Assembly (NCBI GenBank): GCA_031256875.1
Contig: JAIRPQ010000065.1
Coordinates: forward strand, 2,264-66,263
Direction: 5' to 3'
Length of the DNA: 64,000 nt
Source: Eubacteriales Family XIII. Incertae Sedis bacterium
GTDB lineage: Bacteria; Bacillota; Clostridia; Peptostreptococcales; Anaerovoracaceae
The notes beneath the pieces were generated by a model. The model did no database searches. It was not told the origin of the DNA and worked only from the letters and a program-made list of their open reading frames with translations. This document shows, piece after piece, positions 12,167-59,959 of this stretch; within the stretch, counting starts at the first letter, position 1; every line of letters begins with the position of its first letter. The translations under genes were made by a program, and so were the position numbers.

Positions 12167-12257
12167 TTCTGCTCCTATTTACATCTTTATACAGCTTTAT
12201 ACATTTGGGAAACGATGATTAAATCACCGACTTTCATAAATGTATCATTTCCAGTCC

Positions 12258-12276
12258 AAGTTGTCAATACATATTT
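12258..12276. repeat. 19-bp exact repeat, copy 2: -35 region/candidate AraR box of araR itself
   Basis: Identical to 11067-11085. Together with TACATT at 12239-12244 (17-nt spacer) it forms a minus-strand promoter ~75 nt upstream of the araR ATG. Confidence 0.6.
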
Positions 12277-12429
12277 TGTTTGTTTAGAAGTTGTATGTTG
12301 TTTTCATGGCAGCTGCCGCGTACATATAGTATAATAATGTTTCGATGATTAGCAAGTTATTGTTGGGCGGCAGCGCCCTGATGCGGATGTAGTTGCCCCG
12401 CGTCATTACTATATAGGAGCCAGCGACCA

Positions 12430-18669: not shown

Positions 18670-19265
18670 TTTCCGAACACCCCTTCCACCATTCCAGAGA
18701 AACCCATGAACGCGAGCGACAGTATCGACGCCGCTATCAGCACCGACGGCACGCCTTTGAACGTTTCGGGCACGTCCGCTTCCTCGATTTTCTGCCTGAT
18801 GCCCGAGAACAGCACCATGGCGAGCAGGAAGCCTATGCCCGCGCCGAACGCGTTGGCAATGGAGTGCGTGAAGGTGTAGCCGTTGTCGAAATTCAGTATC
18901 GTCACGCCGAGCACCGCGCAGTTCGTCGTGATGAGCGGCAGGTAGACGCCGAGCGACGAATGCAGCGCTGGCATGTATTTTTTCAGCATGATTTCGACGA
19001 GCTGAACCAACGCGGCAATAACAAGTATAAATACAATAATTTGCAGATATTCCAGTCCAAACCTCGCAAGCAGCAGCGCGTAGAGCGGCCACGTGACGGC
19101 GGTCGCGAGCACCATGACGAAGGTCACGGCGATGCTCATGCCGACCGACGAATCAAGGCGTTTCGACACGCCGAGGAAGGGGCAGATGCCGAGGAATTTC
19201 GACAGCACAAAATTGTCAACGAGGATGACGCTGAACAGGATGACCAGTATCTCTTTCATTAACAT
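18666..19265 (-). CDS. rnfA: Rnf complex subunit A
   Basis: 199 aa, polytopic; ...VDNFVLSKFLGICPFLGVS... is typical of RnfA/NqrE. Confidence 0.92.
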   Translation of the reverse strand: MLMKEILVILFSVILVDNFVLSKFLGICPFLGVSKRLDSSVGMSIAVTFVMVLATAVTWPLYALLLARFGLEYLQIIVFILVIAALVQLVEIMLKKYMPALHSSLGVYLPLITTNCAVLGVTILNFDNGYTFTHSIANAFGAGIGFLLAMVLFSGIRQKIEEADVPETFKGVPSVLIAASILSLAFMGFSGMVEGVFGK

Positions 19266-42846: not shown

Positions 42847-43599
42847 CTATGGCCTGCATATGGACTTCAGCACATTTAGTTCTTCTTCGGTGGGCGGCTT
42901 CGATTCTACGGCTGCGGACACGTCTATCTCAAAGCCCGTGTTCGCTATGACATCGGACGGAGATGCGCCGCAGCTGTATTCGGCGAGGTACATTCGCCTG
43001 TCCGCGCCAAAGCGCATAATGCCGAGGTCTGTTACGACAGCCTGCGGCCCTTTGGACGGATTCAGCCCCGCGCGGGCGCGGCCGTCCTCGCCGTCCACCC
43101 ATCCGGAGCTTGTTACATAGTCCAGCCTTTCTACAAACCTGCGCTTCTCATGCTTCATTACTATAACGGTGTCGCAGTGCGTCGCGATACCGTTCGCGCC
43201 GCCCGATCCCGTAAACCGCGTGCGCGGGCTTCTGTAATCCCCTATCGAGGTCGCGTTCAGATTGCCGTAGGGGTCGATCTGCGCCCCGCCGAGAAACCCC
43301 GCCGTTATCACGCCGCGCTTCGCGTAGAGCGCGCTGAACCCCACATATCGGTACTGCGGCCACAGCACCGATGCCTTTCGGCAGATGCGGAGGTCGCTGA
43401 CGCTCGTCGGCACTTCTTCGGGTTCGCTTTCGAATATCCCGCTCTCAAAAATGAACCGCGCCTCTGCCGCGTGCGTATTCTTCGCAAGCGCGGCGCCTAT
43501 CAGAGGCAGCCCCGTACCGATGATATACGTGCCGCCATTCTGTATCTGCCTGGAAATGGCTACTGCCATCAACTGCGCTGAACTGTGTTTTGTTCCCAT
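42847..43599 (-). CDS. gctB: Glutaconate CoA-transferase subunit B
   Basis: 250 aa. IGTGLPLIGAALAK, GGAQIDPYGNLNATSIGDY, RFTGSGGANGIATHCDTVIVMKHEKRRF closely follow my recollection of Acidaminococcus GctB. An alternative start is ATG 43569. Confidence 0.88.
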   Translation of the reverse strand: MGTKHSSAQLMAVAISRQIQNGGTYIIGTGLPLIGAALAKNTHAAEARFIFESGIFESEPEEVPTSVSDLRICRKASVLWPQYRYVGFSALYAKRGVITAGFLGGAQIDPYGNLNATSIGDYRSPRTRFTGSGGANGIATHCDTVIVMKHEKRRFVERLDYVTSSGWVDGEDGRARAGLNPSKGPQAVVTDLGIMRFGADRRMYLAEYSCGASPSDVIANTGFEIDVSAAVESKPPTEEELNVLKSICRP

Positions 43600-44495
43600 A
43601 TTTTCAAATATTCGCTATGTGTCCCCGCGGCAAAAACTTTCTCCGCCATGAATTTTTCAAAGCCCTGCTTCGTGCGGCTCGCCTTGTCGTATTCCACGAA
43701 AAAGCGGCTGTCGTAATCATATCTGCCGAAGCACTGGGACGGGTGCGCCCCCCTGGGCATGTGAACCACCGCGTCCACGCAGAGCCCCGTTATCGTATTC
43801 CTTTCGGGCTCGGCCTTCAGTTGTTCGCTGTCCACAAGCTCCTCGCACGACACTATGGTGTGGCGCGACGCGACGGCGATGTCCACGTCCTGAAACTCCG
43901 ACCCGTCTATGCGGCAGATACCGTCCGCGCTGGCCTGTTGTACGTGGAGGAGCGCAACATCTATGCGCGGCGTAGGTACGAGACATAGCTCGCTTTCCGG
44001 ATCGAACGGGTCTTTCGCCATGACGTATTTCTTCGGCGGAAGCTTGGGATGCTTCGCCCTCTCCTCCTCGCTGATTCCCCATTTCGCGAGCATGTCCGAC
44101 CCTATCATATTCTTCACGGGGATGTAGCTGAGCCCGAGAGCCGCTCCGTGTAACGCCAGCGTCTGAACGTCGAGGGAATAGTCCTCGAACATTATGCTCC
44201 CCGAAATATCCCCATCTGACTCCACCGCGTTGCGAAAGCGGTTGCAGACCATCGAAAATCCGGAATTGGCGATATACGAAACCATCAGCGCGGCGACGCA
44301 CCCCGCACCGATGAGCATGTCGATATCCCCGCCCGACGGCCCCCCTTCGATATACAGCCCCCTTCGTTTCTGACGAATTATTTCATAAACAAGACCGTAA
44401 GGGCGACGGTTCGTGACGAAACCTCCGATGGCCACACTGTCGCCATCGTGGACGAACCGCTCTACCGCCTCCCTTACTGTCATTGTTTTATTCAT
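43569..44495 (-). CDS. gctA: Glutaconate CoA-transferase subunit A
   Basis: 308 aa, family-I CoA-transferase alpha subunit: MTVREAVERFVHDGDSVAIGGF... Confidence 0.85.
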   Translation of the reverse strand: MNKTMTVREAVERFVHDGDSVAIGGFVTNRRPYGLVYEIIRQKRRGLYIEGGPSGGDIDMLIGAGCVAALMVSYIANSGFSMVCNRFRNAVESDGDISGSIMFEDYSLDVQTLALHGAALGLSYIPVKNMIGSDMLAKWGISEEERAKHPKLPPKKYVMAKDPFDPESELCLVPTPRIDVALLHVQQASADGICRIDGSEFQDVDIAVASRHTIVSCEELVDSEQLKAEPERNTITGLCVDAVVHMPRGAHPSQCFGRYDYDSRFFVEYDKASRTKQGFEKFMAEKVFAAGTHSEYLKIWEQNTVQRS

Positions 44496-44499
44496 ACAT

Positions 44500-44808
44500 T
44501 TACACTACCGCTTCATTGTATTTCTCGTAAATGGTTTTGATGGCCGTGATGATGGCCTTTCTGGTGCTGCCATACCACTGCTTTTCAAACCTGCGTATCA
44601 GCGCTTCGATGCCGCCGTTCAGATTGTACCCGTTGATAAGTTCCGACACGAACTTCCTCGACAGGTTGGTTGAGAGCGAGCAGTCCGATTCAAGAATGAC
44701 GCCGCTTTTGAGGTCAACGGTAACGACTATCACCAAAGTATCATATAGTTTGCTCGACGTGATGTTCGACGGCAGCTTCGCATATCCTGACAACAATACT
44801 GTATTCAT
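44500..44808 (-). CDS. DUF3870-like small protein
   Basis: 102 aa. SGYAKLPSNITSSKLYDTLVIVVTVDLKSGVILESDCSLST... matches my recollection of the DUF3870 pattern. Its stop is 4 nt before the gctA ATG. Confidence 0.6.
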   Translation of the reverse strand: MNTVLLSGYAKLPSNITSSKLYDTLVIVVTVDLKSGVILESDCSLSTNLSRKFVSELINGYNLNGGIEALIRRFEKQWYGSTRKAIITAIKTIYEKYNEAVV

Positions 44809-46631: not shown

Positions 46632-47717
46632 CTAAATGCTGTTCACGTAATGCTCCATCGGCTTCAAGAGATATTGCCCGTTCGCCATCCTGTCGGTGGA
46701 CACATAACCCGACGGACTGTCTATCAGCACCGGTATGCGGTTCACGATGTCGGCGCATGTCAGCTCCACGGTAGCCGGATTGTCTACCTTGATGGCCGTG
46801 TATGGCTCGCCGTAGAGACTCCAGTCGTTCGTGTCGATTTCGCCGGGCGCGTAGACCTTGCCTATAGATTCCGTTACCAGCGTGACACCCTCGGCTGTCT
46901 TGGTCGTGACGACAGAACCCATGCCTGTAACATTTCCCGCCTTGATGGTCATGCCCAAGGTTTTCGAATGCAAGTCCTCGGAATGCGTCTTGGGTATATT
47001 CTTTTGTGTCTGGGAAATAATAGTCAGACCGAGCCTGCTGGCCAGCCAGCCGTTCTGCGTCCACATATATGACGGAATCCATTCGCCTTTCTCGATTAGC
47101 TCCTGTATCATCTCATAAGTGTAGTCGTTGTAACCTCCGAGCTTTTCATAGAACTCCTCCAGCGTGAGTCCGGCGCCATGCCCTTCAGCGAGCGCGATGC
47201 CGTAGTCCTCGACGTTATAGCTGGAGCTGCCCTTGATTTTGTCAATGCTGTTCATCGATGCCGCTATGGTAGTAATCAGCACGCCCCAATAGAGGTCGGG
47301 ATAGCCGCTTCCGGCCAGGGTGCAGCCACCGGCTTTCGCGAGCGCGTCCAGCTCTTCAGCGAGCTTGGGCGCGGAGTTCCACGGAAAGAGACTCTCCTCG
47401 CATGTCGAAATCGCGTTCACGCCGTTTTTCGCGCAGATGGAGAACGGTTCGAATATTTCGTCCACCGTGCTGCGCGTCGCCACGATGCATACATCGGGCT
47501 TCGTGTCCGCGATGACCTTCGCCATGTCCGCCGAGTCCGAGACCTTGATGCCCGTAGGCTCGGAAATGCCCATGATGTCGCTGATATCTTTGCCGATGGC
47601 GGCATCGCTCATGTCGAACGCCGCGACTGGCTCCGCGCCGTGTTCGATAGCGTAGCGCATGAGGTATTTGCCCATCCTGCCCGTGCCGTATTGCGCGAAT
47701 TTTACTTTGCGTTTCAT
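46632..47717 (-). CDS. DapB-like NAD(P)-dependent oxidoreductase, 2,4-diaminopentanoate-dehydrogenase / native amine dehydrogenase family (tentative)
   Basis: 361 aa with an N-terminal Rossmann VKFAQYGTGRMGKY. Overall length and layout resemble Ord/AmDH-family enzymes as I recall them; this has not been verified by search. Confidence 0.5.
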   Translation of the reverse strand: MKRKVKFAQYGTGRMGKYLMRYAIEHGAEPVAAFDMSDAAIGKDISDIMGISEPTGIKVSDSADMAKVIADTKPDVCIVATRSTVDEIFEPFSICAKNGVNAISTCEESLFPWNSAPKLAEELDALAKAGGCTLAGSGYPDLYWGVLITTIAASMNSIDKIKGSSSYNVEDYGIALAEGHGAGLTLEEFYEKLGGYNDYTYEMIQELIEKGEWIPSYMWTQNGWLASRLGLTIISQTQKNIPKTHSEDLHSKTLGMTIKAGNVTGMGSVVTTKTAEGVTLVTESIGKVYAPGEIDTNDWSLYGEPYTAIKVDNPATVELTCADIVNRIPVLIDSPSGYVSTDRMANGQYLLKPMEHYVNSI

Positions 47718-47767: not shown

Positions 47768-49510
47768 TTACCCTTTGATGATGCGTGGGGTCAGCAGATG
47801 GTGAACCGCGCAGAACGATTCGGGGTTCTGGTAATACGAACCGACGAACGCCTTGCAGTAGTCACGCAGCTTCGGCATATCAACAACCTCGTCCACCATG
47901 CCTCTGATGGCCGCGAACTTCGGCCTGGACGATTCGTCGTAGTGCTTGATGATCTCGTTCATCTTCGCGATAGTCTCATCCAGCGGCTTGCCGGAATCCT
48001 TGTCCTTCACGAGCCTGCGGGCATAGGTAGCTGCCGCCGCCGTCTCGCCGTGCATGACGTAGATCTCCGTCGCGCCCGTGCCGAGCGTGAACGCATTGTT
48101 GTTGTTCGCCTGCGGTCCGCCTAGCACGTAGTGCGCGGCTGCCGAGCCTTTGCGGAGGACTATGGTCATCATCGGATTGTTCGACTGCTCGATGGAGTAG
48201 ATGAGCGACATGCCCAGCCCGAGCATTTCCGCCTGCTCCGCAACGTCGCCAACGTCGATGCCCGACGTATCCTGAAGCCAGATGATGGGTGTGCGGTCGC
48301 GACCACAAGTGGTCACAAATTCGCTCATCTTGATGAGACCCTCGCGATAGAGCTTGCCGCCCACGCCCGGGTAGTCCGCGTATTTCGGATAGTCGGCACC
48401 GAGGCCGCCCGAATTGTTCGCCACAAAGCCGCAGAGGAAACCGTCGATCTTCGCAAGTCCGCAGTAGACTTCCGGACCGTAGTCGGGCCTGAACTCCATA
48501 TGCTCGCTGTTATCGAAGATACGCGCCAGCACTTCCTTCATGTCGTATGTCCTGCGCGGGTTCATCGGAACTAGGCTGTAGAGATCCTCGGCGGGATACT
48601 TGGGCTCCGCGGGTTCGGCGACGCGGAAGAATTTCGGGTCATACGCGGGAAGCGTATCCATGTAAGCCTTGATGTCGTCCAGCACTTCTTCCTCGGTGTC
48701 GCAGACGTCGCGGATGAAGCCTGTGCTTCCGTGGTGAATCTCAACACGCCCCGGAGGGGTGGCCTTGAGCTTCTTCGTGTTCTCAATGAGTCCTTCGGCC
48801 ACTTCGTCGTCAATGAATCCCTTCGGCTTCATGCCGCTGACGATGCCCGCGCCGCCGACCGACATATTCGCGTCTTTGTGCGCGATGAGTATCGACGGGC
48901 TGATGGAGTGGTAGCCACCGCCGGCGGGGTTCGTCCCGTAGATGCCTACGATGATAGGCACGCCGAGCTTCTGCAGTTCGGCATGGCGGAAGAACGGAGC
49001 GCCGCTGCCGCGCCTGTCGGGGAAGATGTTCTCATGCTCGCTGAGCTTCACGCCGCTGCAATTCAGCACCCATACGAGCGGCAGTTTCAGACGCTTTGCG
49101 ATGTCCGTGACGCGCAGCACGTTGTCCGCCTGCCCCGAGAGCCACGCACCCGCGATGATCTTGTTGTTCGACGCGATGATGATGGCCCATTTGCCGTTGA
49201 TCTTGCCAAGGCCGTCGATGACGTTGGACGTTCCCTCGGCGTTCTCGGCGGGGTCGTAGATGGTGTGCAGCGGGCACCATGTACCCGGGTCGATAAGGTA
49301 TTCGATGCGCTGCCACGCAGTCCACTCGCCCTTTTCGTTCATCTTCTCATCGGGCTTTCCCGAGGTCTTGACGCGCTCTACCTCGGCCGCGATGATAGCT
49401 TCCTGTTCTTTCAGTTCTTCGGCATTCTTCGCCAGCTCGCGTTTTAGCTCGCTGCCGATGCCGGGCATTTCCGCAAAATACGGGTGAAGCGGATAACCAT
49501 AATCTGACAT
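47768..49510 (-). CDS. gcdA: Glutaconyl-CoA decarboxylase alpha subunit (carboxyltransferase)
   Basis: 580 aa. GIYGTNPAGGGYHSISP, LNCSGVK and the C-terminal YQNPESFCAVHHLLTPRIIKG track the Acidaminococcus GcdA sequence as I recall it. Confidence 0.9.
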   Translation of the reverse strand: MSDYGYPLHPYFAEMPGIGSELKRELAKNAEELKEQEAIIAAEVERVKTSGKPDEKMNEKGEWTAWQRIEYLIDPGTWCPLHTIYDPAENAEGTSNVIDGLGKINGKWAIIIASNNKIIAGAWLSGQADNVLRVTDIAKRLKLPLVWVLNCSGVKLSEHENIFPDRRGSGAPFFRHAELQKLGVPIIVGIYGTNPAGGGYHSISPSILIAHKDANMSVGGAGIVSGMKPKGFIDDEVAEGLIENTKKLKATPPGRVEIHHGSTGFIRDVCDTEEEVLDDIKAYMDTLPAYDPKFFRVAEPAEPKYPAEDLYSLVPMNPRRTYDMKEVLARIFDNSEHMEFRPDYGPEVYCGLAKIDGFLCGFVANNSGGLGADYPKYADYPGVGGKLYREGLIKMSEFVTTCGRDRTPIIWLQDTSGIDVGDVAEQAEMLGLGMSLIYSIEQSNNPMMTIVLRKGSAAAHYVLGGPQANNNNAFTLGTGATEIYVMHGETAAAATYARRLVKDKDSGKPLDETIAKMNEIIKHYDESSRPKFAAIRGMVDEVVDMPKLRDYCKAFVGSYYQNPESFCAVHHLLTPRIIKG

Positions 49511-49534: not shown

Positions 49535-50743
49535 CTACTGCATGCTTCCAACTATTGTTATGTAAAGCCCTGTGAGTATCGCTGTGGTGATGACTCCGCA
49601 TATAGACGCGCCCATGGCGTACTGCAAAATCATCACGCGCTTGTTGACCTTCTGGGCCTCCTTCTGCGCTATCTTGGCCGTAGTGGGTATACACGACACA
49701 CCGGCCACGCCTATGACTGGGTTGAACTTCTTGCCTGTGAACCGGTACACGACGTACCCGCCAATCATGCCGCCTACGGCCGCAAGCGCGAGCGCTATGA
49801 TGCCGAGCACCAGCAGCACGAGAATCTTCGGGTTCAGCAGCGTGCTCGCTTCGCACAACACTCCGAGCAGCAGCCCGAGGAAGAACGTCGCGCCGTAGAG
49901 CAGCACATCTTCAAGAAGATTCATATACTTGAACACACCTGATTCCTTGATGGCGTTTCCGAGGAAGAAGCTCAGGAAAAGCGGTGCGGCTACGGGGAAT
50001 AGCAGGCAGAGCGCCGTTCCCGCTACCATGTCGAATATAATCTTCTCCATCGGCTTGATGTCGTCGATTCTCCTCGACGGCTTCACGGCTATACCGCGCA
50101 GATGCTTCGGTATCACCAGCTTAATGAGGTACGGATACCCCGCGTAGCACAGGCTGAGATACAGATACGCGACTATCGTGATTGGCACGAATAAGTCCTT
50201 TGCGAGCATGAGCGACGAGTACAGAACCATCGGTCCGTCGGCGCCGCCCACGAGGGCTATAGCGGCCGCGTCACCGTAGTCCAGACCCATAGCGTGCGCT
50301 ATCGGGAATGTGGCAATCGAGCCCAGCTCCGCGAACATCGCTATGAACATGCTCGTGAACGGGAATTTCAGCAGGTTGCCTACATCCGATATGGTGCCCA
50401 GCCCCATGAATACGAGACAGGCGATCAGGCCGTTGCTGAATGTGAGCGAGTATACGGGCTGCAGGAAATCTATCTGCATGATTTCCATAAGGCCGTTCGT
50501 GTCGCTGACCAGCGGGTCCATGAATATCGTGCCTATCTTGCCCGCGTCGAGGAACAGCACGCCCGCGTTGACCGCCGCCATGCCGAAGCCCATCGGTATC
50601 ATGATGAGCGGCTCAAGCGTTTTCTTGACGCCGAGGTACACGAGGAACAGTCCCGCTACGATGAGCGCGATGCGCCCTATCGCGATAGCCGGCTCCTGAG
50701 CGAAGAGGGTGCCTATACCTTGAAAGAGTTGTACCATATTCAT
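49535..50743 (-). CDS. gcdB: Na+-translocating decarboxylase beta subunit (GcdB/OadB/MmdB family)
   Basis: 402-aa polytopic membrane protein. Its start overlaps the stop of the upstream small anchor subunit (ATGA). Confidence 0.88.
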   Translation of the reverse strand: MNMVQLFQGIGTLFAQEPAIAIGRIALIVAGLFLVYLGVKKTLEPLIMIPMGFGMAAVNAGVLFLDAGKIGTIFMDPLVSDTNGLMEIMQIDFLQPVYSLTFSNGLIACLVFMGLGTISDVGNLLKFPFTSMFIAMFAELGSIATFPIAHAMGLDYGDAAAIALVGGADGPMVLYSSLMLAKDLFVPITIVAYLYLSLCYAGYPYLIKLVIPKHLRGIAVKPSRRIDDIKPMEKIIFDMVAGTALCLLFPVAAPLFLSFFLGNAIKESGVFKYMNLLEDVLLYGATFFLGLLLGVLCEASTLLNPKILVLLVLGIIALALAAVGGMIGGYVVYRFTGKKFNPVIGVAGVSCIPTTAKIAQKEAQKVNKRVMILQYAMGASICGVITTAILTGLYITIVGSMQ

Positions 50744-51081
50744 GCCGCACCCTCCTTCCCGCTCTCGCCGTTGCCATTGGTGCCGGCTTCGGGCTTGCCC
50801 TCGGCTGCTTCGGCCTTGGCCGTGCTGCCTGCGTCGGGCTCGCCTTTGCCTTCTGATTTGGTTTCGCTGTCAGCGCTTTTCGGCGCCTCCGGCGAAGCCT
50901 TCTTGCCTTCGTCTTTCTTTTCGGCACTGCCGCCGGCCTGCCCGTCCTGCGTTTTAGCTGCCGCCTGCTTGTTGCCGCGCCTGATAATCAACAGTATGAT
51001 TTTGATGAGGAATGCCATGCCCAAGGCTATGACGAACCCCAGAAAATACACCTGTAAGGCGATGCTTATTGATTCATCCAT
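50740..51081 (-). CDS. gcdD: Decarboxylase membrane-anchor subunit (OadG/GcdD-like)
   Basis: 113 aa with one N-terminal TM helix (IALQVYFLGFVIALGMAFLIKIILLII) and a Lys/Ala/Glu/Gly-rich tail. GGAG RBS. Confidence 0.7.
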   Translation of the reverse strand: MDESISIALQVYFLGFVIALGMAFLIKIILLIIRRGNKQAAAKTQDGQAGGSAEKKDEGKKASPEAPKSADSETKSEGKGEPDAGSTAKAEAAEGKPEAGTNGNGESGKEGAA

Positions 51082-51132: not shown

Positions 51133-51231
51133 CTACATGATTTCTTTGCGAATCATTATCGCGAATATCGCTATCACCGCGACGATAACCGCCACGCATA
51201 TGATAATAGTGGGTGCGTCCCATGTAAACAT
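51133..51231 (-). CDS. 32-aa single-TM peptide, unannotated (possible extra decarboxylase/Etf-associated subunit)
   Basis: Hand-translated: MFTWDAPTIIICVAVIVAVIAIFAIMIRKEIM. A strong RBS AAGGAG lies 8 nt upstream and overlaps the etfA stop region. It sits between etfA and gcdD. Confidence 0.5.
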   Translation of the reverse strand: MFTWDAPTIIICVAVIVAVIAIFAIMIRKEIM

Positions 51232-51243
51232 GCTATAACTCCT

Positions 51244-52233
51244 TTACTGAAGCTTTTTAAATTCTTCCGTCAACAGCGGAACCACCTCGAACAGGTCGCC
51301 CACGATGCCGTAGTCCGCGAGGGTGAAGATGTTCGCTTCGGGGTCCTTGTTGATGGCTACGATATACTTCGACGTACCCATGCCCGCGAGATGCTGTATC
51401 GCGCCCGAGATGCCGGCTGCGATGTAGAGCGTGGGCGACACGGTCTTGCCGGTCTGACCTACCTGGTACATCTCCTCGCGCCATCCCGCGTCGACTGCGG
51501 CGCGCGAAGCGCCGACGGCCGCGCCGATGACATCGGCAAGCTCCTCAAGTATCGCGAAATTCTCCGGACCCTTCATGCCGCGTCCGCCGGAGACGATAAT
51601 CTCGGCTTCGATGAGCTCGGGGCGCGTCGATGTGGCCATGACGATTTCCTTCACGACGGCTTTCAAGTCCGCGGGATCGATGTCCGCGCTTCCGTTCACT
51701 GTCTCGGCCTTGCGCGAAGTGTCGGGCTCGCTGACTGCGAAGGTGTTCGGGCGCACCGTAGCGAGCACGGGCCTGACCTCCGTAGATGTTACCGTAACGG
51801 CCTTGCCGCCGTACACCGAACGCGTGAATTTCAGCAGCTTGTCCGCGTCGTACGCGACCTCGACGACATCCGTGGCCGCGCCTACGCCAAGGCGCTGCGC
51901 GAGCCTGGGTGCGAGGTCCTTGCCGATGGCGGTGTTGCCGATGAGAACCGCTGACGGCTCGCCACTGCTTATCGCCTGGTTCAGCACGGAGGTGTATGCG
52001 CCCGTGGTGTAGTCCTTCAGCTTTTCATCGTCGATTATTATCACTTTGTCCGCGCCGTATGACGCGGCTTCGTCAGCCAGCCCTGCAATGCCGCTGCCAA
52101 CTATGACGGCAGTAAGCGGTTCTCCGGCCTGGTCCGCTATCTTGCGCCCCTCGGAAAGCATCTCGAACGATACCTTCTTCATTACGGCGTCTTTCTGTTC
52201 TATTATTATCCAAATACCGTTTGCCATGTTCAA
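51244..52233 (-). CDS. etfA: Electron transfer flavoprotein alpha subunit
   Basis: 329 aa with the typical EtfA C-terminal FAD-binding region (...[16 protein letters not shown]...). Confidence 0.92.
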
Positions 52234-52246
52234 AACCTCCTCTGTG

Positions 52247-53023
52247 TCAAATGACCTTTGCTTCTTCGTGCAACAGGCGCACGAGTTCCGGCGCGGTTTC
52301 CGCGGCTTCGCCTTTGAGGATGGTTCCGGCTTCGCGCGGCGTCGGCAGGCTTACGCTGTCAATGACGAATTTGGCCGCCACATCGCCGGCAGCTTTGCCA
52401 ACCGCGGCGAGGTCCTTCTTTTCCAAGGGCTTGCTTTTCGCCTTCATGATGCCCATCATATTCGGCAGGCGCGGCTCGTTCAGACCCTTCTGCGCGGTGA
52501 GCATGGCGGGCAGCGGCACTTCGATAATCTCGTTGCCGCCGTCTATCTCGCGCGTAACCGTGGCGACGGTGCCGTCGGTTTCGAATTTCAGGATGGAGCT
52601 GACTGACGGTATGCCGAGGGCTTCCGCCACGCGCACCGCCACCTGGCCCGACGCGTCGTCTACCGCGATGCGACCGGCGAAGATGATGTCGTACTCCACA
52701 TCCTTCAGCGCGGCGGCGACAGCTTCGGCGGCCGCCCACTCGTCCGCGCCATCAAGCGCTTCGTCTGATACGAGGATCGACTTGTCGCAGCCCATGGCAA
52801 GCGCGGTGCGAAGAGCCTGCTCCGCAACATCGCCGCCGGCCGTTACGACCGTGATCTCGCTGCCTTCGCCCTGAGCTTCCTTCAGCGTGAGGGCTTCCTC
52901 GATGGCGAACTCGTCATACGGGTTGATGACGAGGGTGACGCCCGTGGGGTCCACCTTGCCGCCGCTTATGACGATTTTCGCTTCTGTATCGAATGTCTGT
53001 TTCAGCAATACAACTATATTCAT
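52247..53023 (-). CDS. etfB: Electron transfer flavoprotein beta subunit
   Basis: 258 aa: MNIVVLLKQTFDTEAKI...INPYDEFAIEEAL. The bcd-etfB-etfA order matches clostridial butyryl-CoA dehydrogenase operons. Confidence 0.92.
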   Translation of the reverse strand: MNIVVLLKQTFDTEAKIVISGGKVDPTGVTLVINPYDEFAIEEALTLKEAQGEGSEITVVTAGGDVAEQALRTALAMGCDKSILVSDEALDGADEWAAAEAVAAALKDVEYDIIFAGRIAVDDASGQVAVRVAEALGIPSVSSILKFETDGTVATVTREIDGGNEIIEVPLPAMLTAQKGLNEPRLPNMMGIMKAKSKPLEKKDLAAVGKAAGDVAAKFVIDSVSLPTPREAGTILKGEAAETAPELVRLLHEEAKVI

Positions 53024-53054
53024 ATGCTGCCTCCTATTACATAAATGTTATTCA

Positions 53055-54200
53055 TCAATCCTTCAGGATATTCGCCGCGATGACCATTCTCTGGACTTCG
53101 CTCGTGCCTTCGTATATCTCCGTGATTTTCGCGTCGCGCATGAAACGCTCCGCCGGATACTCGCGCGTATATCCGTATCCGCCGAATATCTGCACCGCCT
53201 GTGTCGCAACCTTGTTGGCGGTCTCGGACGCGAATACCTTCGCCATCGCCGCGTAGTAGTTCGTCGCGCGGTCGTACTTCGATGCGTAGGAACACGCTTC
53301 GTACACGAGCAGGCGCGCGGCTTCTATCTGCATGGCCATGTCCGCGAGCTTGAACTGCGTTATCTGGAAGTTCGAGATAGGCTGACCAAACTGCTCGCGC
53401 TCCTTCGAATATTTCAGAGCGGCTTCGTACGCGCCCTGCGCGATGCCGACTGCCTGCGACGCGATGCCGATGCGACCATAGTCGAGCGTCTGAAGCGCCA
53501 CTTTGAAACCGTTGCCCTCTCCGCCGAGCAGGTTCTCCTCGGGGATGCGTACGTTTTCGAATACCAGCTCATAGGTGGCCGACGAGCGGATGCCCATCTT
53601 CTTCTCTTTTTTGCCGAAGGTGAAGCCCGGCGTGTCCTTCTCGAGGATGAACGCTGCGATGCCCTTGTTGCCTTTTTCCTTGTCCATCTGCGCCGTTATC
53701 ACATAGGTGTCGGCATAGTAGCCGTTCGTGATGAAGACCTTGCTGCCGTTGATGACATACTCGTTGCCTTCCTTGACGGCGGTCGTGCGCGTGCCGCTGG
53801 CATCCGAACCGGCCATGGCTTCCGTAAGCCCGAAAGCGCCCATCTTCTGACCGGTGGCGAGCGGCGGCAGGAATTTCTTTTTCTGCTCGTCCGTGCCGAA
53901 CATGTAGATGGGGTTCGCGCAGAGGCTGGCGTGCGCCGAAACCGTGACGCCGAGGGACGGATCCACGCGGGACAGCTCCTCAACCACGAGGGAATACGTC
54001 ACATAGTCCTGACCCAGTCCGCCGTACTCCTCTGGGAAGGTGATGCCTACGAGACCCAGCTCGGCACAGGCATTCCACAGGTCTACGGGGAACTCCTCTT
54101 TCTCGTCGCGCTCCTCTATGCCAGGGGCTACCTGTTCTTCCGCAAATTTGCGTACCATGTCCTTTATCATTAACTGTTCGTCTGTATATTGAAAATCCAT
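53055..54200 (-). CDS. bcd: Short-chain (butyryl-CoA type) acyl-CoA dehydrogenase
   Basis: 381 aa with the catalytic-base region IYEGTSEVQRMVIA typical of SCAD/Bcd. Confidence 0.85.
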   Translation of the reverse strand: MDFQYTDEQLMIKDMVRKFAEEQVAPGIEERDEKEEFPVDLWNACAELGLVGITFPEEYGGLGQDYVTYSLVVEELSRVDPSLGVTVSAHASLCANPIYMFGTDEQKKKFLPPLATGQKMGAFGLTEAMAGSDASGTRTTAVKEGNEYVINGSKVFITNGYYADTYVITAQMDKEKGNKGIAAFILEKDTPGFTFGKKEKKMGIRSSATYELVFENVRIPEENLLGGEGNGFKVALQTLDYGRIGIASQAVGIAQGAYEAALKYSKEREQFGQPISNFQITQFKLADMAMQIEAARLLVYEACSYASKYDRATNYYAAMAKVFASETANKVATQAVQIFGGYGYTREYPAERFMRDAKITEIYEGTSEVQRMVIAANILKD

Positions 54201-54225
54201 TTGTCGCTCCTTGTATTACAATGTG

Positions 54226-54294
54226 GAAACCATCACGTTGCGGGCGCGGCCTGTGGCTGACCGCCGAACCGCGCCCGCCAGGAGGTGATGTTTC
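54226..54294 (-). other. Large imperfect inverted repeat / stem-loop between the two acyl-CoA dehydrogenase genes
   Basis: The inner 10-bp GC stem is GCGGGCGCGG (54240-54249) with CCGCGCCCGC (54269-54278). The outer arms are GAAACCATCAC (54226-54236) with GTGATGTTTC (54285-54294). No U-run follows it on the minus strand. Confidence 0.5.
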
Positions 54295-55451
54295 TAACGA
54301 TTTGGCTGGTAGCCAAGCTCGATGCCCGCTACGATGGTGGTGTGGATGTTCGACGTTCCTTCAAGCGTTTCGAACTGCTTGGCGTCGCGCAGCCAGCGGC
54401 CGCACGGATACTCATCGGAATAGCCGTAGGAGCCGTATACCTTCATCGCGATATTGGCAGCGTTGACCGCCGCTTTGCACGAATACAGCTTCGCCATCGA
54501 AGTCTGCTGCTGGCTCGGCATCTTGTTCTGCTTCAGCCATGCCGCGCGGTACACGAGCTGGAGGGCTGCGTCGTCCTCGAGCTTCATCTCGGCGATCTGT
54601 GCCTGTACGAGCTGGAACTTGCCGATGGGCTGGCCAAACTGTGTGCGCTCATTCGCGTATGCAACAGAGCCTTCCAGAGCTGCCGCGGACAGAGCCGCCG
54701 CGCCCGTCGCGCAACCCATGCGCGTGTTGTTCAGCATCCACATGCAGATGGGGAAGCCTTTGTTCACAGGACCGAGCAAATTCTCTTTCGGAACCTGCGC
54801 GTTCTCGAATACCAGCTCCGAGGTGGGTGCCGACCACATACCGACCTTCTTGTTGATAGGAATGCGCTCGATGCCTTCGGTGTTGTTGTAGTCGATGATG
54901 AAGCAGGACAGTCCCTTGGGGCCGCCGCCTTCTTCCGTGCAGACATAGACCAGACCGATGTCGCTCGTGTGACCGCCCGATATCCACATCTTCGAGCCGT
55001 TCAGCACATAATGGCTACCCTTGTCCTCGGCGAACATCTTCATGCTGCCGACATCCGAGCCCGAGTTCGCTTCCGTCATCGCGAAGCTGCCGACGGCCTC
55101 ACCGCTGAGCAGCGGCGGGATGAACTTTTTCTTCTGCTCGTCCGTGCCGTATTCGAGGATGGTCATCGCCGGCCCCCAGCAGTTGCCGCTGATGGAGAGT
55201 CTCCATGATGTGTGTACCTTGGCTATCTCATAGAGCGCCGTTACAGCTTCCATCCAGCCCATGCCGTTCCCGCCGTATTCTTCGGGCATGCTCCATCCGA
55301 GCAGACCCATTTCGCCCATCTTGCTCAGTATCTCGCGGCGGTAATAATGGTTTTCCTCGTCCTGCTCGACGTATGGCGCGATTTCCTTCTCAGCGAAGGA
55401 CTTCGCCATTTCCTGTACCATTCTTTGTTCTTCGGTAAATCCAAAATCCAT
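54294..55451 (-). CDS. Acyl-CoA dehydrogenase, glutaryl-CoA-dehydrogenase-like
   Basis: 385 aa. The C-terminal catalytic region FETLEGTSNIHTTIVAG resembles the GCDH signature (YEGTHDIHALILG) more than the SCAD signature. Confidence 0.65.
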   Translation of the reverse strand: MDFGFTEEQRMVQEMAKSFAEKEIAPYVEQDEENHYYRREILSKMGEMGLLGWSMPEEYGGNGMGWMEAVTALYEIAKVHTSWRLSISGNCWGPAMTILEYGTDEQKKKFIPPLLSGEAVGSFAMTEANSGSDVGSMKMFAEDKGSHYVLNGSKMWISGGHTSDIGLVYVCTEEGGGPKGLSCFIIDYNNTEGIERIPINKKVGMWSAPTSELVFENAQVPKENLLGPVNKGFPICMWMLNNTRMGCATGAAALSAAALEGSVAYANERTQFGQPIGKFQLVQAQIAEMKLEDDAALQLVYRAAWLKQNKMPSQQQTSMAKLYSCKAAVNAANIAMKVYGSYGYSDEYPCGRWLRDAKQFETLEGTSNIHTTIVAGIELGYQPNR

Positions 55452-55526: not shown

Positions 55527-55736
55527 CTATTCGACGGTCGCGAGAACCTGATCTTCCTCGACGGCATCGCCTTCCTTCACGAGAATCTCTTTGACCGTGC
55601 CGTTCTCGCCATAGATGACGGTTTCCATCTTCATGGCTTCGACGATGATGACTTCGTCATCTTCGGTTATCGCATCGCCAACCTTGATGTTTATCTCCTG
55701 CACCTTGCCCGAAATCGTACTGATAAGATCTGCCAT
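55527..55736 (-). CDS. gcdC: Biotin carboxyl carrier subunit of the decarboxylase (GcdC-like, minimal)
   Basis: 69-aa biotinyl domain with the EAMKME motif. AAGGAGG RBS. Confidence 0.85.
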   Translation of the reverse strand: MADLISTISGKVQEINIKVGDAITEDDEVIIVEAMKMETVIYGENGTVKEILVKEGDAVEEDQVLATVE

Positions 55737-55892
55737 TTGTTTGCCTCCTTACAATTTTTATTTTTTTACGTGTGAACTAACGTACATTAACATACTTTTT
55801 GAGTAACAATTTTTTATGCGGTGCAGCTACTTTTTTTGCCGTCAGCCGCACCGCGAATTTCGTGCTGCTGAATCTATGATGTCAGGTGATTG

Positions 55893-57266
55893 TTACTCGG
55901 CCCACAGCTCGTCGTCCGAAAGCTTCAGCCCCGGCGCATCAGGTATCTCATACGCTATGCGGCTGATGTTGATGAGGTGGGTGAACCACAGATTTTCGCT
56001 GAGGCTGTTGTTGCCCCATGTGCCGCAGCCGAGCGTACCGGTCGGGTTGAGACCGTTCGCCAGCGTTCCGCCAAGGCTGTTCGAGCCAATCTGATTGACC
56101 GAGAAACGGGAAACCTTGATTTTGATTGCGGCCTGCTCCACATGCTCCTTCGTGTTCGAGTGGATGACGCAGCTGTGACCCGTGCCTTCGAACTCGATGT
56201 TCGCGGCGGCCTTGTCCACTGCCTCGTCCCATTCGTCGTACACATACATCGTGAGGACAGGGAAAAGCTTCTCCTTTGCGAGCGGCTCGTCCGCGCCGGT
56301 TTTCTCCACGCGCACTACGATGAGCTTCGTGTCCTCGGGAATATCGATGCCCGCGCGCTTCGCGATGTCAACAGGCTTGATGCCAACGACATCCTTTTCC
56401 ATCGCGCCGCCCGGGAAAAGCGTCTTGCGGAAGGTTTCGACCTCTGCATCGTCGCTCACGATATAAGCGCCCTGCTTTTTGAACTCCTCGGCGACCGCGT
56501 CGGCTTTCGCGCTCGGCACGAATATGGACTGCTCGCATGTACACAGCACACCGTTGTCGTAGATGCGACCCGTGATGGTCTTTGTTACGGCATCGGCGAT
56601 ATCAGCGTCGGTGTCGTAGAGGCTCTGGACGTTGCCCTGGCCTACGCCATACGCAGGCTTGCCGCTCGAATAGGCAGCCTTCACCATGCCGGGACCGCCC
56701 GTGGATATGCAGGCGTCCGTCTGCTGCATGATGAGACCCGAAACCTCTATCGAAGCTTCGTCCACAATCTGAATCAGGTCGATGGGCGCGCCGGCCGCCA
56801 CGAGAGCTTCCCTCATGACATCGACGGTCGCCTTGCCTGTCTTGACTCCCTTGGGGTGCGGGCACACGATAATCGCGTTGCCGCCCTTCAGGGCTATCAT
56901 TGCGTTGTGGATGGGCGTCATTACAGGGTTGGTCACGGGCGTAATCGCGCCGATGACCCCGATGGGCTTGGCTACTTCAACTAAACCTTCGTCCTCGATA
57001 TACCTGATGACGCCGCGGCTCGGCTTGCCTTTGAGCTTGTACCATGTGACTTTGGGCTTGCCCTGATTCTTTTTGATTTTGTCTTCGACATTGCCCATGC
57101 CTGTCTCCTCGACGGCGAGTTCCGCCAACGGGACTGCCTTGTCGTAAACGGCTTTGCCTATAGCCCTTACCGCTTTATCCACATCCGCCTGCGAGTAAGT
57201 TTCGAACTCGCTCTGCGCCTTGCGCGCTTTTGCGATTAGCTCAGCTACATGTTCCTGTGCATTCAT
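55893..57266 (-). CDS. CoA-acylating semialdehyde dehydrogenase (SucD-like)
   Basis: 457 aa, collinear with my recollection of C. kluyveri SucD: AKPIGVIGAITPVTNPVMTP, the catalytic Cys region DNGVLCTCEQS, and GCGTWGNNSLSENL. Confidence 0.8.
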   Translation of the reverse strand: MNAQEHVAELIAKARKAQSEFETYSQADVDKAVRAIGKAVYDKAVPLAELAVEETGMGNVEDKIKKNQGKPKVTWYKLKGKPSRGVIRYIEDEGLVEVAKPIGVIGAITPVTNPVMTPIHNAMIALKGGNAIIVCPHPKGVKTGKATVDVMREALVAAGAPIDLIQIVDEASIEVSGLIMQQTDACISTGGPGMVKAAYSSGKPAYGVGQGNVQSLYDTDADIADAVTKTITGRIYDNGVLCTCEQSIFVPSAKADAVAEEFKKQGAYIVSDDAEVETFRKTLFPGGAMEKDVVGIKPVDIAKRAGIDIPEDTKLIVVRVEKTGADEPLAKEKLFPVLTMYVYDEWDEAVDKAAANIEFEGTGHSCVIHSNTKEHVEQAAIKIKVSRFSVNQIGSNSLGGTLANGLNPTGTLGCGTWGNNSLSENLWFTHLINISRIAYEIPDAPGLKLSDDELWAE

Positions 57267-57309: not shown

Positions 57310-58518
57310 TTACAGCGCCTCTATCGAAGCCTTCAGGATTTCAACCGCCTTGTCACAGTCCTCCTTAGTCGCGATAAGCGGAGGTACCATGCGTACGATT
57401 TTCGCTCCGATGGCTGTGGTGAGAAGATTGCGATCCAAGGCGTTGTGCTTGACATCAACAGCCCTGTCCTCGTCCAGCTCGATGGCTACGAGCAGACCGC
57501 GACCCCTGGATTCCTTCACGTGCGGCAGTGTGGCGAGCTTCTCCATGAAGTAAGCTCCTACCTCCGCAGCATTGTCGCCGAGGTTCCTGTCTATCAGCTC
57601 TTTCAGCTCGGCAATCGCAGCCGCGCACGCGACGGGGTTGCCGCCGTATGTGGTGCCGTGCGAACCGGGCGTGAACGCGCTTGCGACCTTTTCCGTCGCG
57701 CAGATGGCGCCGATGGGCATGCCGCCGCCGATGGCCTTCGCCATCGAAACGATGTCGGGCTTGATGCCGTAGTGCATATAGCCCATGGCCTTGCCTGTCC
57801 TGTACCAACCGGTCTGAATCTCGTCCATGAGGAGCAGCAGACCCTTGTCCTTGCAGAGCTGCTGGATGCCGTCCATGAACTCCTGCGTCGCTACATTGAC
57901 GCCGCCCTCGCCCTGGATAGGCTCGAGCATGATGGCGATGGTGTCGTCCGTGACCTTCGCCGCGAAATCGTCTACATTGTTGAACTCGGCATAGCTGAAC
58001 CCAGGCAGCATCGGCTTGAACCCGAGCTGGCAAGCGTTGTCAGGCTGACCCGTCGCGGACATCGCGCCGTAGGTCCTGCCGTGGAAGCTGTTCTTCGCTG
58101 TGATGATGTGATATTTGTTCTCGCCGAAATTGTCCGTGCCGTATTTGCGCGCGAGCTTGATCATGGCTTCGTTCGACTCCGTACCGGAGCTCTGGAAGAA
58201 AATCTTGTCCATGCCGATGGTCTCGCAAACGAGCTTTGCGAGAACAGCCTGCGGGATGGAGTACGGATAGTTGAACACGTGCATTACATCCTGCACCTGG
58301 TCGATTACCGCATCCACAACCTTCTTGTTGCAGCTGCCTGCGCTGTTAACGGCTATGCCGCCGTAGAAATCCAAATACGCATTGCCGTCCTGGTCATACA
58401 GGTACATGCCCTCCGCTTTGGCCGCGAGGAAAGGGAACCTCTCATATGTCTCAATCATATACTTCTCAGTATATTTTTTGACATCCTCAAACGTTAATCC
58501 TACATCTTTTAACTGCAT
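57310..58518 (-). CDS. Class-III aminotransferase (ArgD/GabT/5-aminovalerate aminotransferase-like)
   Basis: About 402 aa: YLDFYGGIAVNSAGSCN, DEIQTGWYRTGK and the PLP-lysine region DIVSMAKAIGGG. The start is set at ATG 58518 (AAGGAGG RBS). Confidence 0.85.
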   Translation of the reverse strand: MQLKDVGLTFEDVKKYTEKYMIETYERFPFLAAKAEGMYLYDQDGNAYLDFYGGIAVNSAGSCNKKVVDAVIDQVQDVMHVFNYPYSIPQAVLAKLVCETIGMDKIFFQSSGTESNEAMIKLARKYGTDNFGENKYHIITAKNSFHGRTYGAMSATGQPDNACQLGFKPMLPGFSYAEFNNVDDFAAKVTDDTIAIMLEPIQGEGGVNVATQEFMDGIQQLCKDKGLLLLMDEIQTGWYRTGKAMGYMHYGIKPDIVSMAKAIGGGMPIGAICATEKVASAFTPGSHGTTYGGNPVACAAAIAELKELIDRNLGDNAAEVGAYFMEKLATLPHVKESRGRGLLVAIELDEDRAVDVKHNALDRNLLTTAIGAKIVRMVPPLIATKEDCDKAVEILKASIEAL

Positions 58519-58560
58519 TTCGTCCTCCTTTAAGTAAGTAAATAAATAACTGTAGCGGCA

Positions 58561-58593
58561 CATTGCCGGTAACGCAGTGCACTACCGGCAATG
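58561..58593 (-). terminator. 11-bp perfect stem-loop between the two aminotransferase genes
   Basis: CATTGCCGGTA-N11-TACCGGCAATG. On the minus strand it is followed by a T-rich stretch (GTTATTTATTTACTT). Confidence 0.5.
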
Positions 58594-58603
58594 GATGAAC
58601 CTA

Positions 58604-59959
58604 TTACCAACCGTGCTTTTCGTATACGACGCCGCACGACTCGTCTATAACCTGGAGCGCCCTCTCGATATGCTCGTCCGAAATCATGAGCGGTGGCTCG
58701 ATGCGGATCGTCTTGGCGTTAATCAGGCTGCCGGACACCAGCACCTTGCGGTTGAACATCTCGTAAACGACCTCGTAGCCGATGTCGCCATCGATGAACT
58801 CCATCGCGAGGAACAGTCCGCGCCCGCGCACGTCCGTCATGAGCTTCGGATATTTCGCCTTGATTTTTTCAAGCCCTTCCATGAAGATGCCGCCCGCGCG
58901 CTTGGCCTTCCCTGGCAAATCCTCTTTCAAGATGACGTTCAGCGCCGCGATGCCGGCCGCCGTCGCGGTGGGGCTGCCGCCCGTAGTCGTGCTGTGGAGC
59001 AGCGGGTCGGGGAACATGCCTTTGAAGGCTTCTTCCGTGCAGATGCAGGCGCTGAGCGGCATGACGCCGCCGCCGATGGCCTTCGCGCAGCAGATGATGT
59101 CGGGGGCGACATCGTAGTAGTCTACGGCAAAGAGCGTACCCGTGCGGCCCATGCCCGACTGCACTTCGTCGGCCACCATCATGATGCCGTATTTGTCGCA
59201 GAGCTTGCGGATGCCCGGGATGAAGTCGTCCGGCGGGATATTGATGCCGCCCTCGCCCTGTATCGTCTCAAAGACGATGGCCGCGGGAAGCTCGCCCGTA
59301 AATTCCATGACCTCGAGCATCTTCGTCAGCATGTCTAAATCGCCGAATTTGCAGTGGCGAGTGCCCTGCAGAAGCGGCAGGAACGGCCCTCTGAAATGAG
59401 CCTTGGACGTAAGCGACAGAGCGCCCGCGGTCTTTCCGTGGAAGTCGCCCTCGAAGGCTATGAAGAAATGACGACCCGTCGCGAGCGCGGACATCTTCAG
59501 CGCCGACTCGATGGCTTCAGTGCCCGAGCTCGTAAAGAACGTGTACTGCAAATCCCCCGGCGATACGTCCGCGAGGATGCGAGCCAGCAGCGCCCTGTTG
59601 GAGTCCACGAGCTCCGCGCTCGACAGCGGCTGCTTGGATATCTGATCCGTGACCGCCTTCACGATGGTGGGGTGGCGATGCCCGCAGTTGTAAACGCCGA
59701 AGCCGCCTAAGCAGTCGATGTATTCGCGACCCTGCAGATCCATGAACGTGTCGCCGTTCGCGCTCCACTCCATGGCCATGTCGTCTTCGCCCGCGGCTTT
59801 CCTGTATTCCAAAAACCCGGGGTTGATATGTGTACCGTAATTGTGACGAATCTCCTCTATGAAGCTCTTTTGCTCGTCACCCTCCATGCCCTTCGCCTCT
59901 ATCCATTTTAGTGATTTTTCGGTGTAATCAAGCACATCTTCAAAACTTTTCCTTGGCAT
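58604..59959 (-). CDS. Class-III aminotransferase, putrescine/cadaverine aminotransferase (YgjG/PatA)-like
   Basis: 451 aa. YIDCLGGFGVYNCGHRHP, DEVQSGMGRTG, DIICCAKAIGGG and the C-terminal NAKTIRIEPPL resemble E. coli PatA as I recall it. Confidence 0.75.
   Translation of the reverse strand: MPRKSFEDVLDYTEKSLKWIEAKGMEGDEQKSFIEEIRHNYGTHINPGFLEYRKAAGEDDMAMEWSANGDTFMDLQGREYIDCLGGFGVYNCGHRHPTIVKAVTDQISKQPLSSAELVDSNRALLARILADVSPGDLQYTFFTSSGTEAIESALKMSALATGRHFFIAFEGDFHGKTAGALSLTSKAHFRGPFLPLLQGTRHCKFGDLDMLTKMLEVMEFTGELPAAIVFETIQGEGGINIPPDDFIPGIRKLCDKYGIMMVADEVQSGMGRTGTLFAVDYYDVAPDIICCAKAIGGGVMPLSACICTEEAFKGMFPDPLLHSTTTGGSPTATAAGIAALNVILKEDLPGKAKRAGGIFMEGLEKIKAKYPKLMTDVRGRGLFLAMEFIDGDIGYEVVYEMFNRKVLVSGSLINAKTIRIEPPLMISDEHIERALQVIDESCGVVYEKHGW

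Follow-up and report, generated by a model that had tools for sequence, protein, structure and literature searches.

A candidate redox loop from glutaryl-CoA to butyryl-CoA, encoded with a Na+-pumping glutaconyl-CoA decarboxylase in an Anaerovoracaceae-like bacterium

How does a fermenting bacterium dispose of the high-potential electrons (about -10 mV) released by glutaryl-CoA oxidation? Since acyl-CoA/enoyl-CoA couples lie near -10 mV (PMC8805022), transfer of these electrons to NAD+ is strongly uphill and cannot occur without energy input, whereas their hand-over through an electron-transferring flavoprotein (ETF) is nearly isoenergetic; the step is usually drawn loosely. The question is raised at the level of genes by a block in the order gcdC-gdh-bcd-etfB-etfA-(32 aa)-gcdD-gcdB-gcdA, flanked by gctAB and amine-feeder genes, in a 64,000-nt stretch of contig JAIRPQ010000065.1 (assembly GCA_031256875.1; positions 2,264 to 66,263), hereafter the window. 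All window features described below lie on the minus strand. In our judgement the block probably constitutes a fermentative C5 module, in which glutaryl-CoA dehydrogenase (GDH), ETF, and butyryl-CoA dehydrogenase (Bcd) would form a redox loop coupled to the Na+-pumping glutaconyl-CoA decarboxylase (Gcd). This proposal concerns substrate, CO2 retention, ETF cofactors, and electron path, and draws on gene content, residues, synteny, and family placement.

The source organism is an uncultured anaerobe of gut or digester type. As rpoB was not found in the assembly, which is 76% complete, prolyl-tRNA synthetase was used as the taxonomic marker instead; its nearest relatives are from Emergencia and Anaerovoracaceae metagenome-assembled genomes (59-65% identity).

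The 385-aa dehydrogenase and its decarboxylase

At the centre of the block are two genes for acyl-CoA dehydrogenases (ACADs), one of 385 aa (54294-55451) and one of 381 aa (53055-54200), which are 37.4% identical to each other and each contain all three Pfam ACAD domains. Open reading frames, Pfam domains, and RNA folding bear out the arrangement described in the initial annotation, i.e., two adjacent ACAD paralogues, separated by a large stem-loop and followed by etfB-etfA. The 381-aa protein (...IYEGTSEVQ...) is a Bcd, 60.1% identical to the Acidaminococcus fermentans enzyme of PDB entry 4L1F.

The top NCBIfam match of the 385-aa protein is NF045552, "glutaryl-CoA dehydrogenase Acd" (383.9 bits), and its top PDB match is 3MPI, the non-decarboxylating GDH of Desulfococcus multivorans (GDH_Des; 320.6 bits, 42.8% identity), ahead of Bcd-type enzymes (255-290 bits) and classical glutaryl-CoA dehydrogenases (GCDHs; 168-210 bits). 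Against NF045552, the Bacillota clade to which it belongs scores 384-413, Desulfobacterota homologues (52-56% identical to the window enzyme) score 457-488, and 3MPI itself scores 771. Because of these scores (383.9 for the window enzyme, 397-413 for Bacillota, and 457-488 for Desulfobacterota), the 385-aa enzyme is placed by sequence in a Bacillota sister clade of the characterised Acd/GDH_Des family. A quick tree, for which Bcds were the only outgroup, likewise grouped the Bacillota clade, the Desulfobacterota clade, and 3MPI together against the Bcds.

The catalytic region of this protein (...FETLEGTSNIH...) had been described in the initial annotation as GCDH-like. The motif is indeed present; its specific likeness to classical GCDH is superficial, as the segment, searched by itself, matched 3MPI first and Bcd-type enzymes next, with no classical GCDH among its 27 matches. 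LEGTSNIH was thus rejected as a mark of classical GCDH. We also rejected the assignment of the whole protein as a classical GCDH, given a Leu in place of the GCDH Tyr and GCDH scores of 168-210 bits versus 320 for 3MPI and 290 for Bcd. A decarboxylating gcdH was found neither in the genome nor in the 76 related loci (56 of them from Bacillota) that make up our synteny sample; with no gcdH there to align, the comparison with classical GCDH therefore rests on PDB scores and published residue roles.

In decarboxylating GCDH the omega-carboxylate is bound by an Arg (Arg94 in the human enzyme, Arg97 in that of B. pseudomallei), and a Tyr beside the catalytic Glu hydrogen-bonds this Arg94/97 and contacts the terminal carboxylate that departs as CO2 (PMC3169403). 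The carboxylate-binding Arg is kept in the 385-aa enzyme, where R84 corresponds to the Arg in the ALRVQ stretch of 3MPI; Desulfobacterota homologues have Arg at the equivalent position. Next to the catalytic base, E364, stands an aliphatic residue: L363-E364 in the window enzyme and the whole Bacillota clade, and V-E in 3MPI and the Desulfobacterota homologues. All Bcd paralogues, that of the window included, have G84 and Y363-E364 at these positions. Wischgoll et al. (2010) reportedly identified the Tyr-to-Val exchange as the key to non-decarboxylation. The active-site alignment that had been called for when the locus was first annotated thus returned both a carboxylate-binding Arg and an aliphatic substitute for the GCDH Tyr. 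Together with the NF045552 and 3MPI matches and the gcd linkage described below, it supports, at the level of sequence, the earlier suggestion of a non-decarboxylating GDH; we infer that the enzyme would release glutaconyl-CoA without loss of CO2.

The presence of GcdABCD, on which that suggestion had been built, is borne out. GcdA (47768-49510), the 580-aa carboxyltransferase of glutaconyl-CoA decarboxylase, matches two solved structures of GcdA, 3GF3 (752 bits) and 1PIX (739 bits); GcdB (49535-50743; 402 aa), the Na+-translocating carboxybiotin decarboxylase beta subunit, reaches 203.1 bits against TIGR01109 (cut-off 190.6). The 69-aa biotin carrier GcdC (55527-55736), with an EAMKM biotinylation motif and an AAGGAGG ribosome-binding site, is encoded directly upstream of the GDH gene, beyond the 51244-55451 interval covered by the initial annotation. 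A GcdD-like anchor of 113 aa (50740-51081) is putative, assigned from its position and composition (an N-terminal transmembrane helix, then an Ala/Lys/Glu-rich tail), having found no family match in Pfam and family scans.

Glutaconate/glutarate CoA-transferase is encoded as well, with its A subunit at 43569-44495 (GctA; 302 bits to the glutaconate CoA-transferase 1POI) and its B subunit at 42847-43599 (GctB), both with the Pfam CoA_trans domain. Glutaconate CoA-transferase also activates glutarate (PMC8085960). Upstream of the block, three genes may act as feeders, the substrates given here being those expected from family membership: a CoA-acylating aldehyde dehydrogenase (55893-57266; 408-439 bits to EutE/SauS-type acylating aldehyde dehydrogenases), an ArgD/GABA-type aminotransferase recognised by its family matches (57310-58563), and a putrescine/cadaverine-type aminotransferase (58604-59959; PRK11522, 572 bits). 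Between them, the encoded enzymes would turn cadaverine or 5-aminovalerate into glutaryl-CoA.

The association of GDH with Gcd extends well beyond the window. gcdA occurs in 44 of the 56 Bacillota loci that hold a 77-86% identical GDH orthologue, in 37/76 related loci the dehydrogenase gene has a gcdC-like neighbour no more than 400 bp away, and GDH-gcd linkage spans Anaerovoracaceae, Desulfitobacteriaceae, Oscillospiraceae, and Syntrophomonadaceae. The Bcd orthologue accompanies the ETF of the cluster type in every one of the loci that carry this ETF (23/23), and respiring relatives retain only gdh-gcdA at the equivalent site.

As a separate observation on GDH, several Anaerovoracaceae-type loci (L003, L005, L013, and L034) carry its gene twice, as identical or near-identical copies, the first ahead of bcd and the second separating gcdB from gcdA (e.g., L003:3981-5135 and 11456-12610); a recent duplication, gene conversion, or an artefact of assembly may lie behind this. 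Locus L003 belongs to Sinanaerobacter chloroacetimidivorans BAD-6, a relative available in culture.

Type of the cluster ETF

The path of the electrons hinges on whether the ETF encoded after bcd is of the bifurcating kind. EtfB (52247-53023; 258 aa) and EtfA (51244-52233; 329 aa from a TTG start, with the ATG two codons further on the more likely start) contain the ETF or ETF_alpha Pfam domains. EtfA carries no ferredoxin domain at its N terminus and retains, as R138, the universal Arg. In EtfB, the sequence DGDTAQVGP is the recognition motif for the bifurcating FAD (b-FAD) and is missing in non-bifurcating ETFs (PMC9232219); its Gly123 is invariant in bifurcating ETFs, with a bulkier residue there in canonical ones (PMC12630350). 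Across 216 bifurcating sequences the motif begins with D (100%), G (95%), D (85%), and T (100%), the canonical counterpart being DDDSNQ (PMC8958531). Two Thr residues of EtfB, T94 and T97, bind the flavin-proximal phosphate, and the T94,97A variant of the R. palustris ETF bound AMP instead of FAD, i.e., became canonical-like (PMC9713284).

The window EtfB belongs to a subfamily without this bifurcating signature. Its sequence at 122-130, DDASGQVAV, is identical to DGDTAQVGP at 3/9 positions and places D123, A124, and S125 where the bifurcating motif has Gly, Asp, and Thr; E95 and A98 stand where bifurcating ETFs have ADT-x-A-T, the ADTxATS motif onto which we infer that T94/T97 map. Among the nearest EtfB homologues, DD at 122-123 is found in 120/120, within the pattern DD[GA][SA][SGA]Q, and Glu at the T94 position in 117/120. 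The non-bifurcating-type pattern is common to all 23 orthologous clusters.

The same genome provides an internal control for the bifurcating motif. On contig C101 (926-4195) lies a second Bcd-EtfB-EtfA locus, in which EtfB bears the full bifurcating signature (SDTWATS, DGDTAQVGP) and EtfA, at 430 aa, begins with a 2x[4Fe-4S] ferredoxin domain, as do CarE and LctC. The single etfBA pair reported in the initial annotation is thus single as regards the cluster; for the genome this does not hold, as the assembled 76% contains two ETF pairs in all, those of the cluster and of C101. In a quick EtfB tree built on few references, the bifurcating references and the C101 EtfB formed one clade on a long stem (support of 100 in the Shimodaira-Hasegawa-like approximate likelihood ratio test), and the window EtfB fell in a separate clade, its subfamily also standing apart from the two canonical references.

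An orthologue of this ETF points in the same direction. In Desulfosporosinus sp. SB140, directly after the orthologous etfBA pair (61% and 69% identity) comes a gene whose 679-aa product combines a NarI-like membrane domain with FeS and CCG domains. This domain set is the architecture of ETF:methylmenaquinone oxidoreductase (EMO), whose partner ETF in Syntrophus aciditrophicus was proven by biochemistry to be non-bifurcating (PMC8805022), and suggests that the ancestral partner of the ETF subfamily was a menaquinone-linked oxidoreductase. The EMO-type gene (L157:11880-13919) sits among Hdr/Flx-like and APS-reductase-like genes. From all of the above, the cluster ETF looks non-bifurcating: it is predicted to hold one FAD plus AMP and no bifurcating FAD, and therefore to exchange no electrons with NADH or ferredoxin.

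Other lineages present a different picture. In three loci from other Clostridiales (L024, L026, and L045), gcdA-gdh lies beside a more distant ACAD, which shares ~44% identity with Bcd, and an EtfBA that bears the bifurcating motif (DGDTAQ/H), the EtfB motif of L045 being DSDAGH; because of this pairing, lineages seem to have solved the electron problem in different ways.

A loop between two dehydrogenases and its alternatives

Assembled into a pathway, the module would operate as follows. Glutaryl-CoA would be formed from glutarate via GctAB, or from glutarate semialdehyde via the acylating aldehyde dehydrogenase. The Acd-type dehydrogenase would oxidise it to glutaconyl-CoA, released with its CO2 retained, and pass the two electrons to the cluster ETF. 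GcdABCD would then convert glutaconyl-CoA to crotonyl-CoA while pumping Na+, and the reduced ETF would donate to Bcd, by which crotonyl-CoA would be reduced to butyryl-CoA. The net outcome would be glutaryl-CoA -> butyryl-CoA + CO2 plus a Na+ gradient. As both acyl-CoA couples are about isopotential (about -10 mV), the loop would be pulled only by the decarboxylation between them. GDH, ETF, and Bcd may even act as one assembly. The NAD(P)H of the feeder steps would not be used by the loop, its candidate sinks being the Rnf encoded in the window and the bifurcating Bcd/Etf of C101.

An internal redox loop of this kind had been put forward in the initial annotation, and the present data strengthen the case on genomic rather than biochemical grounds. 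We favour it because of the ETF signature (an EtfB devoid of both the b-FAD motif and the Thr pair), the placement of this EtfB outside the bifurcating clade, and its EMO-linked orthologue; the co-occurrence of Bcd and cluster-type ETF in 23/23 loci is in keeping with it. A broader evolutionary version, to which we would give even chances, is that the DD[GA]S-type ETF subfamily is wired to EMO in respiring Desulfitobacteriaceae and has been re-wired in fermenting Anaerovoracaceae between two near-isopotential ACADs, as a closed loop driven solely by the Na+-pumping decarboxylation. If true, such re-wiring would account for the retention, in a Firmicute, of a non-bifurcating Bcd/ETF pair alongside a bifurcating one.

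Several observations weigh against the loop and lend themselves to other explanations. The first of these is coupling through soluble pools: the cluster ETF would contain a second FAD, and NADH and ferredoxin would join both steps. Oxidation would then proceed by reverse bifurcation (glutaryl-CoA + Fd_red + 2 NAD+ -> glutaconyl-CoA + Fd_ox + 2 NADH, where Fd is ferredoxin), and crotonyl-CoA would be reduced via a bifurcating Bcd/EtfAB, either the cluster's or that of C101. In its favour, the window EtfA is closest to bifurcating EtfAs (251-295 bits, versus 191-196 to canonical ones), Rnf is encoded in the window, the bifurcating-type Bcd/Etf on C101 could reduce crotonyl-CoA with NADH, and a review depicts the Pelospora pathway with an NAD+/NADH link (PMC8085960). 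The EtfB motif is no textbook canonical one, since DDASGQ shares with DDDSNQ the two leading Asp residues, an S-like position, and the Gln, and lacks both the Asn and the third Asp; it represents a third EtfB motif type, so that the ETF cofactor content stands as a prediction. Yet Gly123, Asp124, Thr125, and both phosphate-binding Thr are missing in the window EtfB and in 120/120 of its nearest homologues, the subfamily lies outside the bifurcating clade, its orthologue is EMO-linked, and nothing would be gained by running one enzyme both forwards and backwards. Pool-mediated coupling is thus, in our view, unlikely.

A second explanation leaves the ETF aside and questions the substrate: the 385-aa enzyme might act on another dicarboxylyl-CoA, or on 5-hydroxy- or 5-aminovaleryl-CoA, with glutaconyl-CoA reaching Gcd by a separate route. 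The score of 383.9 bits falls short of the curated NF045552 equivalog cut-off of 470, which some of the Desulfobacterota homologues do pass, and the residue beside the catalytic Glu is Leu rather than the Val of GDH_Des, its effect being deduced by analogy. Moreover, ThnO, which is 45% identical to GDH_Des, acts on a different carboxylated acyl-CoA (PMC11659651), so an identity of ~43% does not by itself fix the substrate, and LEG is also found in isobutyryl-CoA dehydrogenases (PMC8360864). Because of ThnO and these LEG-bearing enzymes, residues and identity are by themselves not decisive. Against a different substrate stand the conserved Arg at the carboxylate position, which Bcds lack, and the gcdC/gcdA linkage across the four families named above; furthermore, family scans of the window proteins revealed neither a 2-hydroxyglutaryl-CoA dehydratase nor anything else encoded in the window that would supply glutaconyl-CoA. 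The genomic context settles most of the doubt as to the role of the enzyme, and a different substrate appears decidedly improbable.

Least probable of all, and only barely to be entertained, is that both ACADs work oxidatively and that the ETF, in the manner of Syntrophus or Desulfosporosinus, donates to EMO/menaquinone or a similar membrane acceptor as part of a respiratory or syntrophic metabolism. In its favour, Desulfosporosinus has this ETF subfamily linked to EMO, and a further ETF acceptor may be unassembled in a 76% complete genome. Yet no EMO-like ETF acceptor was found in the assembled genome or the 23 fermenter-type loci, no acceptor gene lies alongside clusters carrying Bcd and the cluster-type ETF, and oxidation of butyryl-CoA would be senseless in a fermenter whose upstream feeder leads from amines to glutaryl-CoA. 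Three CCG-domain proteins considered as EMO-like acceptors were rejected, being large, soluble-looking FAD/FeS proteins without a NarI-like or other membrane domain.

Neighbouring features and known systems

The 93-nt spacer between the GDH and Bcd genes (54201-54293) contains the stem-loop mentioned above, a long hairpin (54231-54290) with a GC-rich 12-bp core stem and no T-run after it. The minimum free energy of the spacer is -41.4 kcal/mol, versus -28.6 +/- 3.1 for shuffled sequences (z = -4.2), and 0/200 shuffles fold as strongly. As a conserved element the hairpin was rejected, given that its sequence is not kept in orthologous clusters, some of which have other strong hairpins at this site and others none; we read it as a local mRNA-level feature outside the mechanism. 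Between the aldehyde dehydrogenase gene and gcdC, a GC-rich stem (GCGGTGCGGCT...AGCTGCACCGC) with an A/T-rich run after it (55780-55870) may be a terminator or attenuator delimiting a gcdC-gdh-bcd-etfBA-gcdDBA sub-operon.

A 32-aa single-helix membrane peptide (51133-51231), encoded between etfA and the gcdD-like gene, is a candidate for a further small subunit of the decarboxylase. The gene of a 361-aa relative of 2,4-diaminopentanoate dehydrogenase (46632-47717; 118 bits versus a cut-off of 400), which may be an amine dehydrogenase acting on a C5 amine, is flanked by gcdA and an amino-acid permease gene, and a 102-aa DUF3870 protein is encoded at 44500-44808, ending just ahead of gctA. Farther off, RnfC is encoded at 21538-22914, within a 17815-22914 region whose downstream open reading frames resemble the remaining rnf operon; if they complete it, this would be a ferredoxin:NAD+ ion pump near the module.

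The enzymes, the physiology, and the net conversion of glutaryl-CoA to butyryl-CoA and CO2 are already known. In the literature searched, three things appear to be new: the Bacillota Acd-type clade, a dedicated ETF of non-bifurcating type associated with Bcd, and an ACAD-to-ACAD loop. What the locus offers is a gene-level account of how fermenters may dispose of the electrons from glutaryl-CoA oxidation. It also exposes two gaps in annotation, in that a large Bacillota clade of Acd-type GDHs falls under the curated family cut-off and a widespread ETF subfamily is labelled merely "EtfB/FixA family"; both bear on the prediction, for guts and digesters, of butyrate made from C5 compounds that derive from lysine (cadaverine, 5-aminovalerate, and glutarate).

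With GDH_Des (3MPI/3MPJ, NF045552), the window dehydrogenase shares the ACAD fold, the catalytic Glu, the carboxylate Arg, the replacement of the GCDH Tyr by an aliphatic residue, and genomic linkage to gcd; it differs in its 42.8% identity, its sub-threshold family score, Leu instead of Val, and its membership in a Bacillota sister clade. The settings differ too, as GDH_Des serves benzoyl-CoA degradation in a sulfate reducer with a respiratory sink, whereas the window enzyme would serve a fermentative amine/glutarate pathway with Bcd as the sink. Pelospora glutarica, as summarised in a review (PMC8085960) of the work of Matthies & Schink (1992), converts glutarate to butyrate + CO2 with Na+ export, by the same net reaction and the same enzymes, i.e., glutaconate CoA-transferase, glutaryl-CoA dehydrogenase/Etf, Gcd, and butyryl-CoA dehydrogenase. 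Physiological work and enzyme assays underlie what is known of that system, with an NAD+/NADH link drawn in the review, whereas ours is known from genes, and its ETF sequence argues for a direct link.

Among ETF-dependent systems, the bifurcating Bcd/EtfAB complexes (C. difficile 5OL2, A. fermentans 4KPU/4L1F, and CarCDE 6FAH) resemble the window proteins in Bcd (60% to 4L1F) and provide the best PDB matches of EtfA; the window EtfB departs from them in lacking the b-FAD motif and Thr pair and in falling outside their clade, the genuine member in this genome being that on C101. In S. aciditrophicus, a non-bifurcating ETF serves ACADs reductively, including one acting on glutaconyl-CoA (PMC8805022). 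In this strict anaerobe and its ETF/EMO-bearing relatives, the ETF serves several ACADs in both directions, as the window ETF would, and the Desulfosporosinus orthologue of the window ETF is itself EMO-adjacent; the difference is that no EMO was found in the window genome, where Bcd would replace the membrane acceptor.

A parallel for the electron path is the Ldh-ETF-Bcd system of Fusobacterium nucleatum (PMC12630350, 2025), in which a cluster-encoded non-bifurcating ETF, with a bulky EtfB residue at the Gly123 position, feeds Bcd so that crotonyl-CoA can be reduced. If the window ETF is likewise non-bifurcating, the module would be the second natural case of a plain ETF feeding Bcd, and the first with an acyl-CoA dehydrogenase at each end, as donor and as acceptor. 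In F. nucleatum the donor is D-lactate dehydrogenase (-190 mV) and the transfer runs downhill, whereas in the window the donor would be a second ACAD at about the potential of the acceptor, with the pull provided by decarboxylation.

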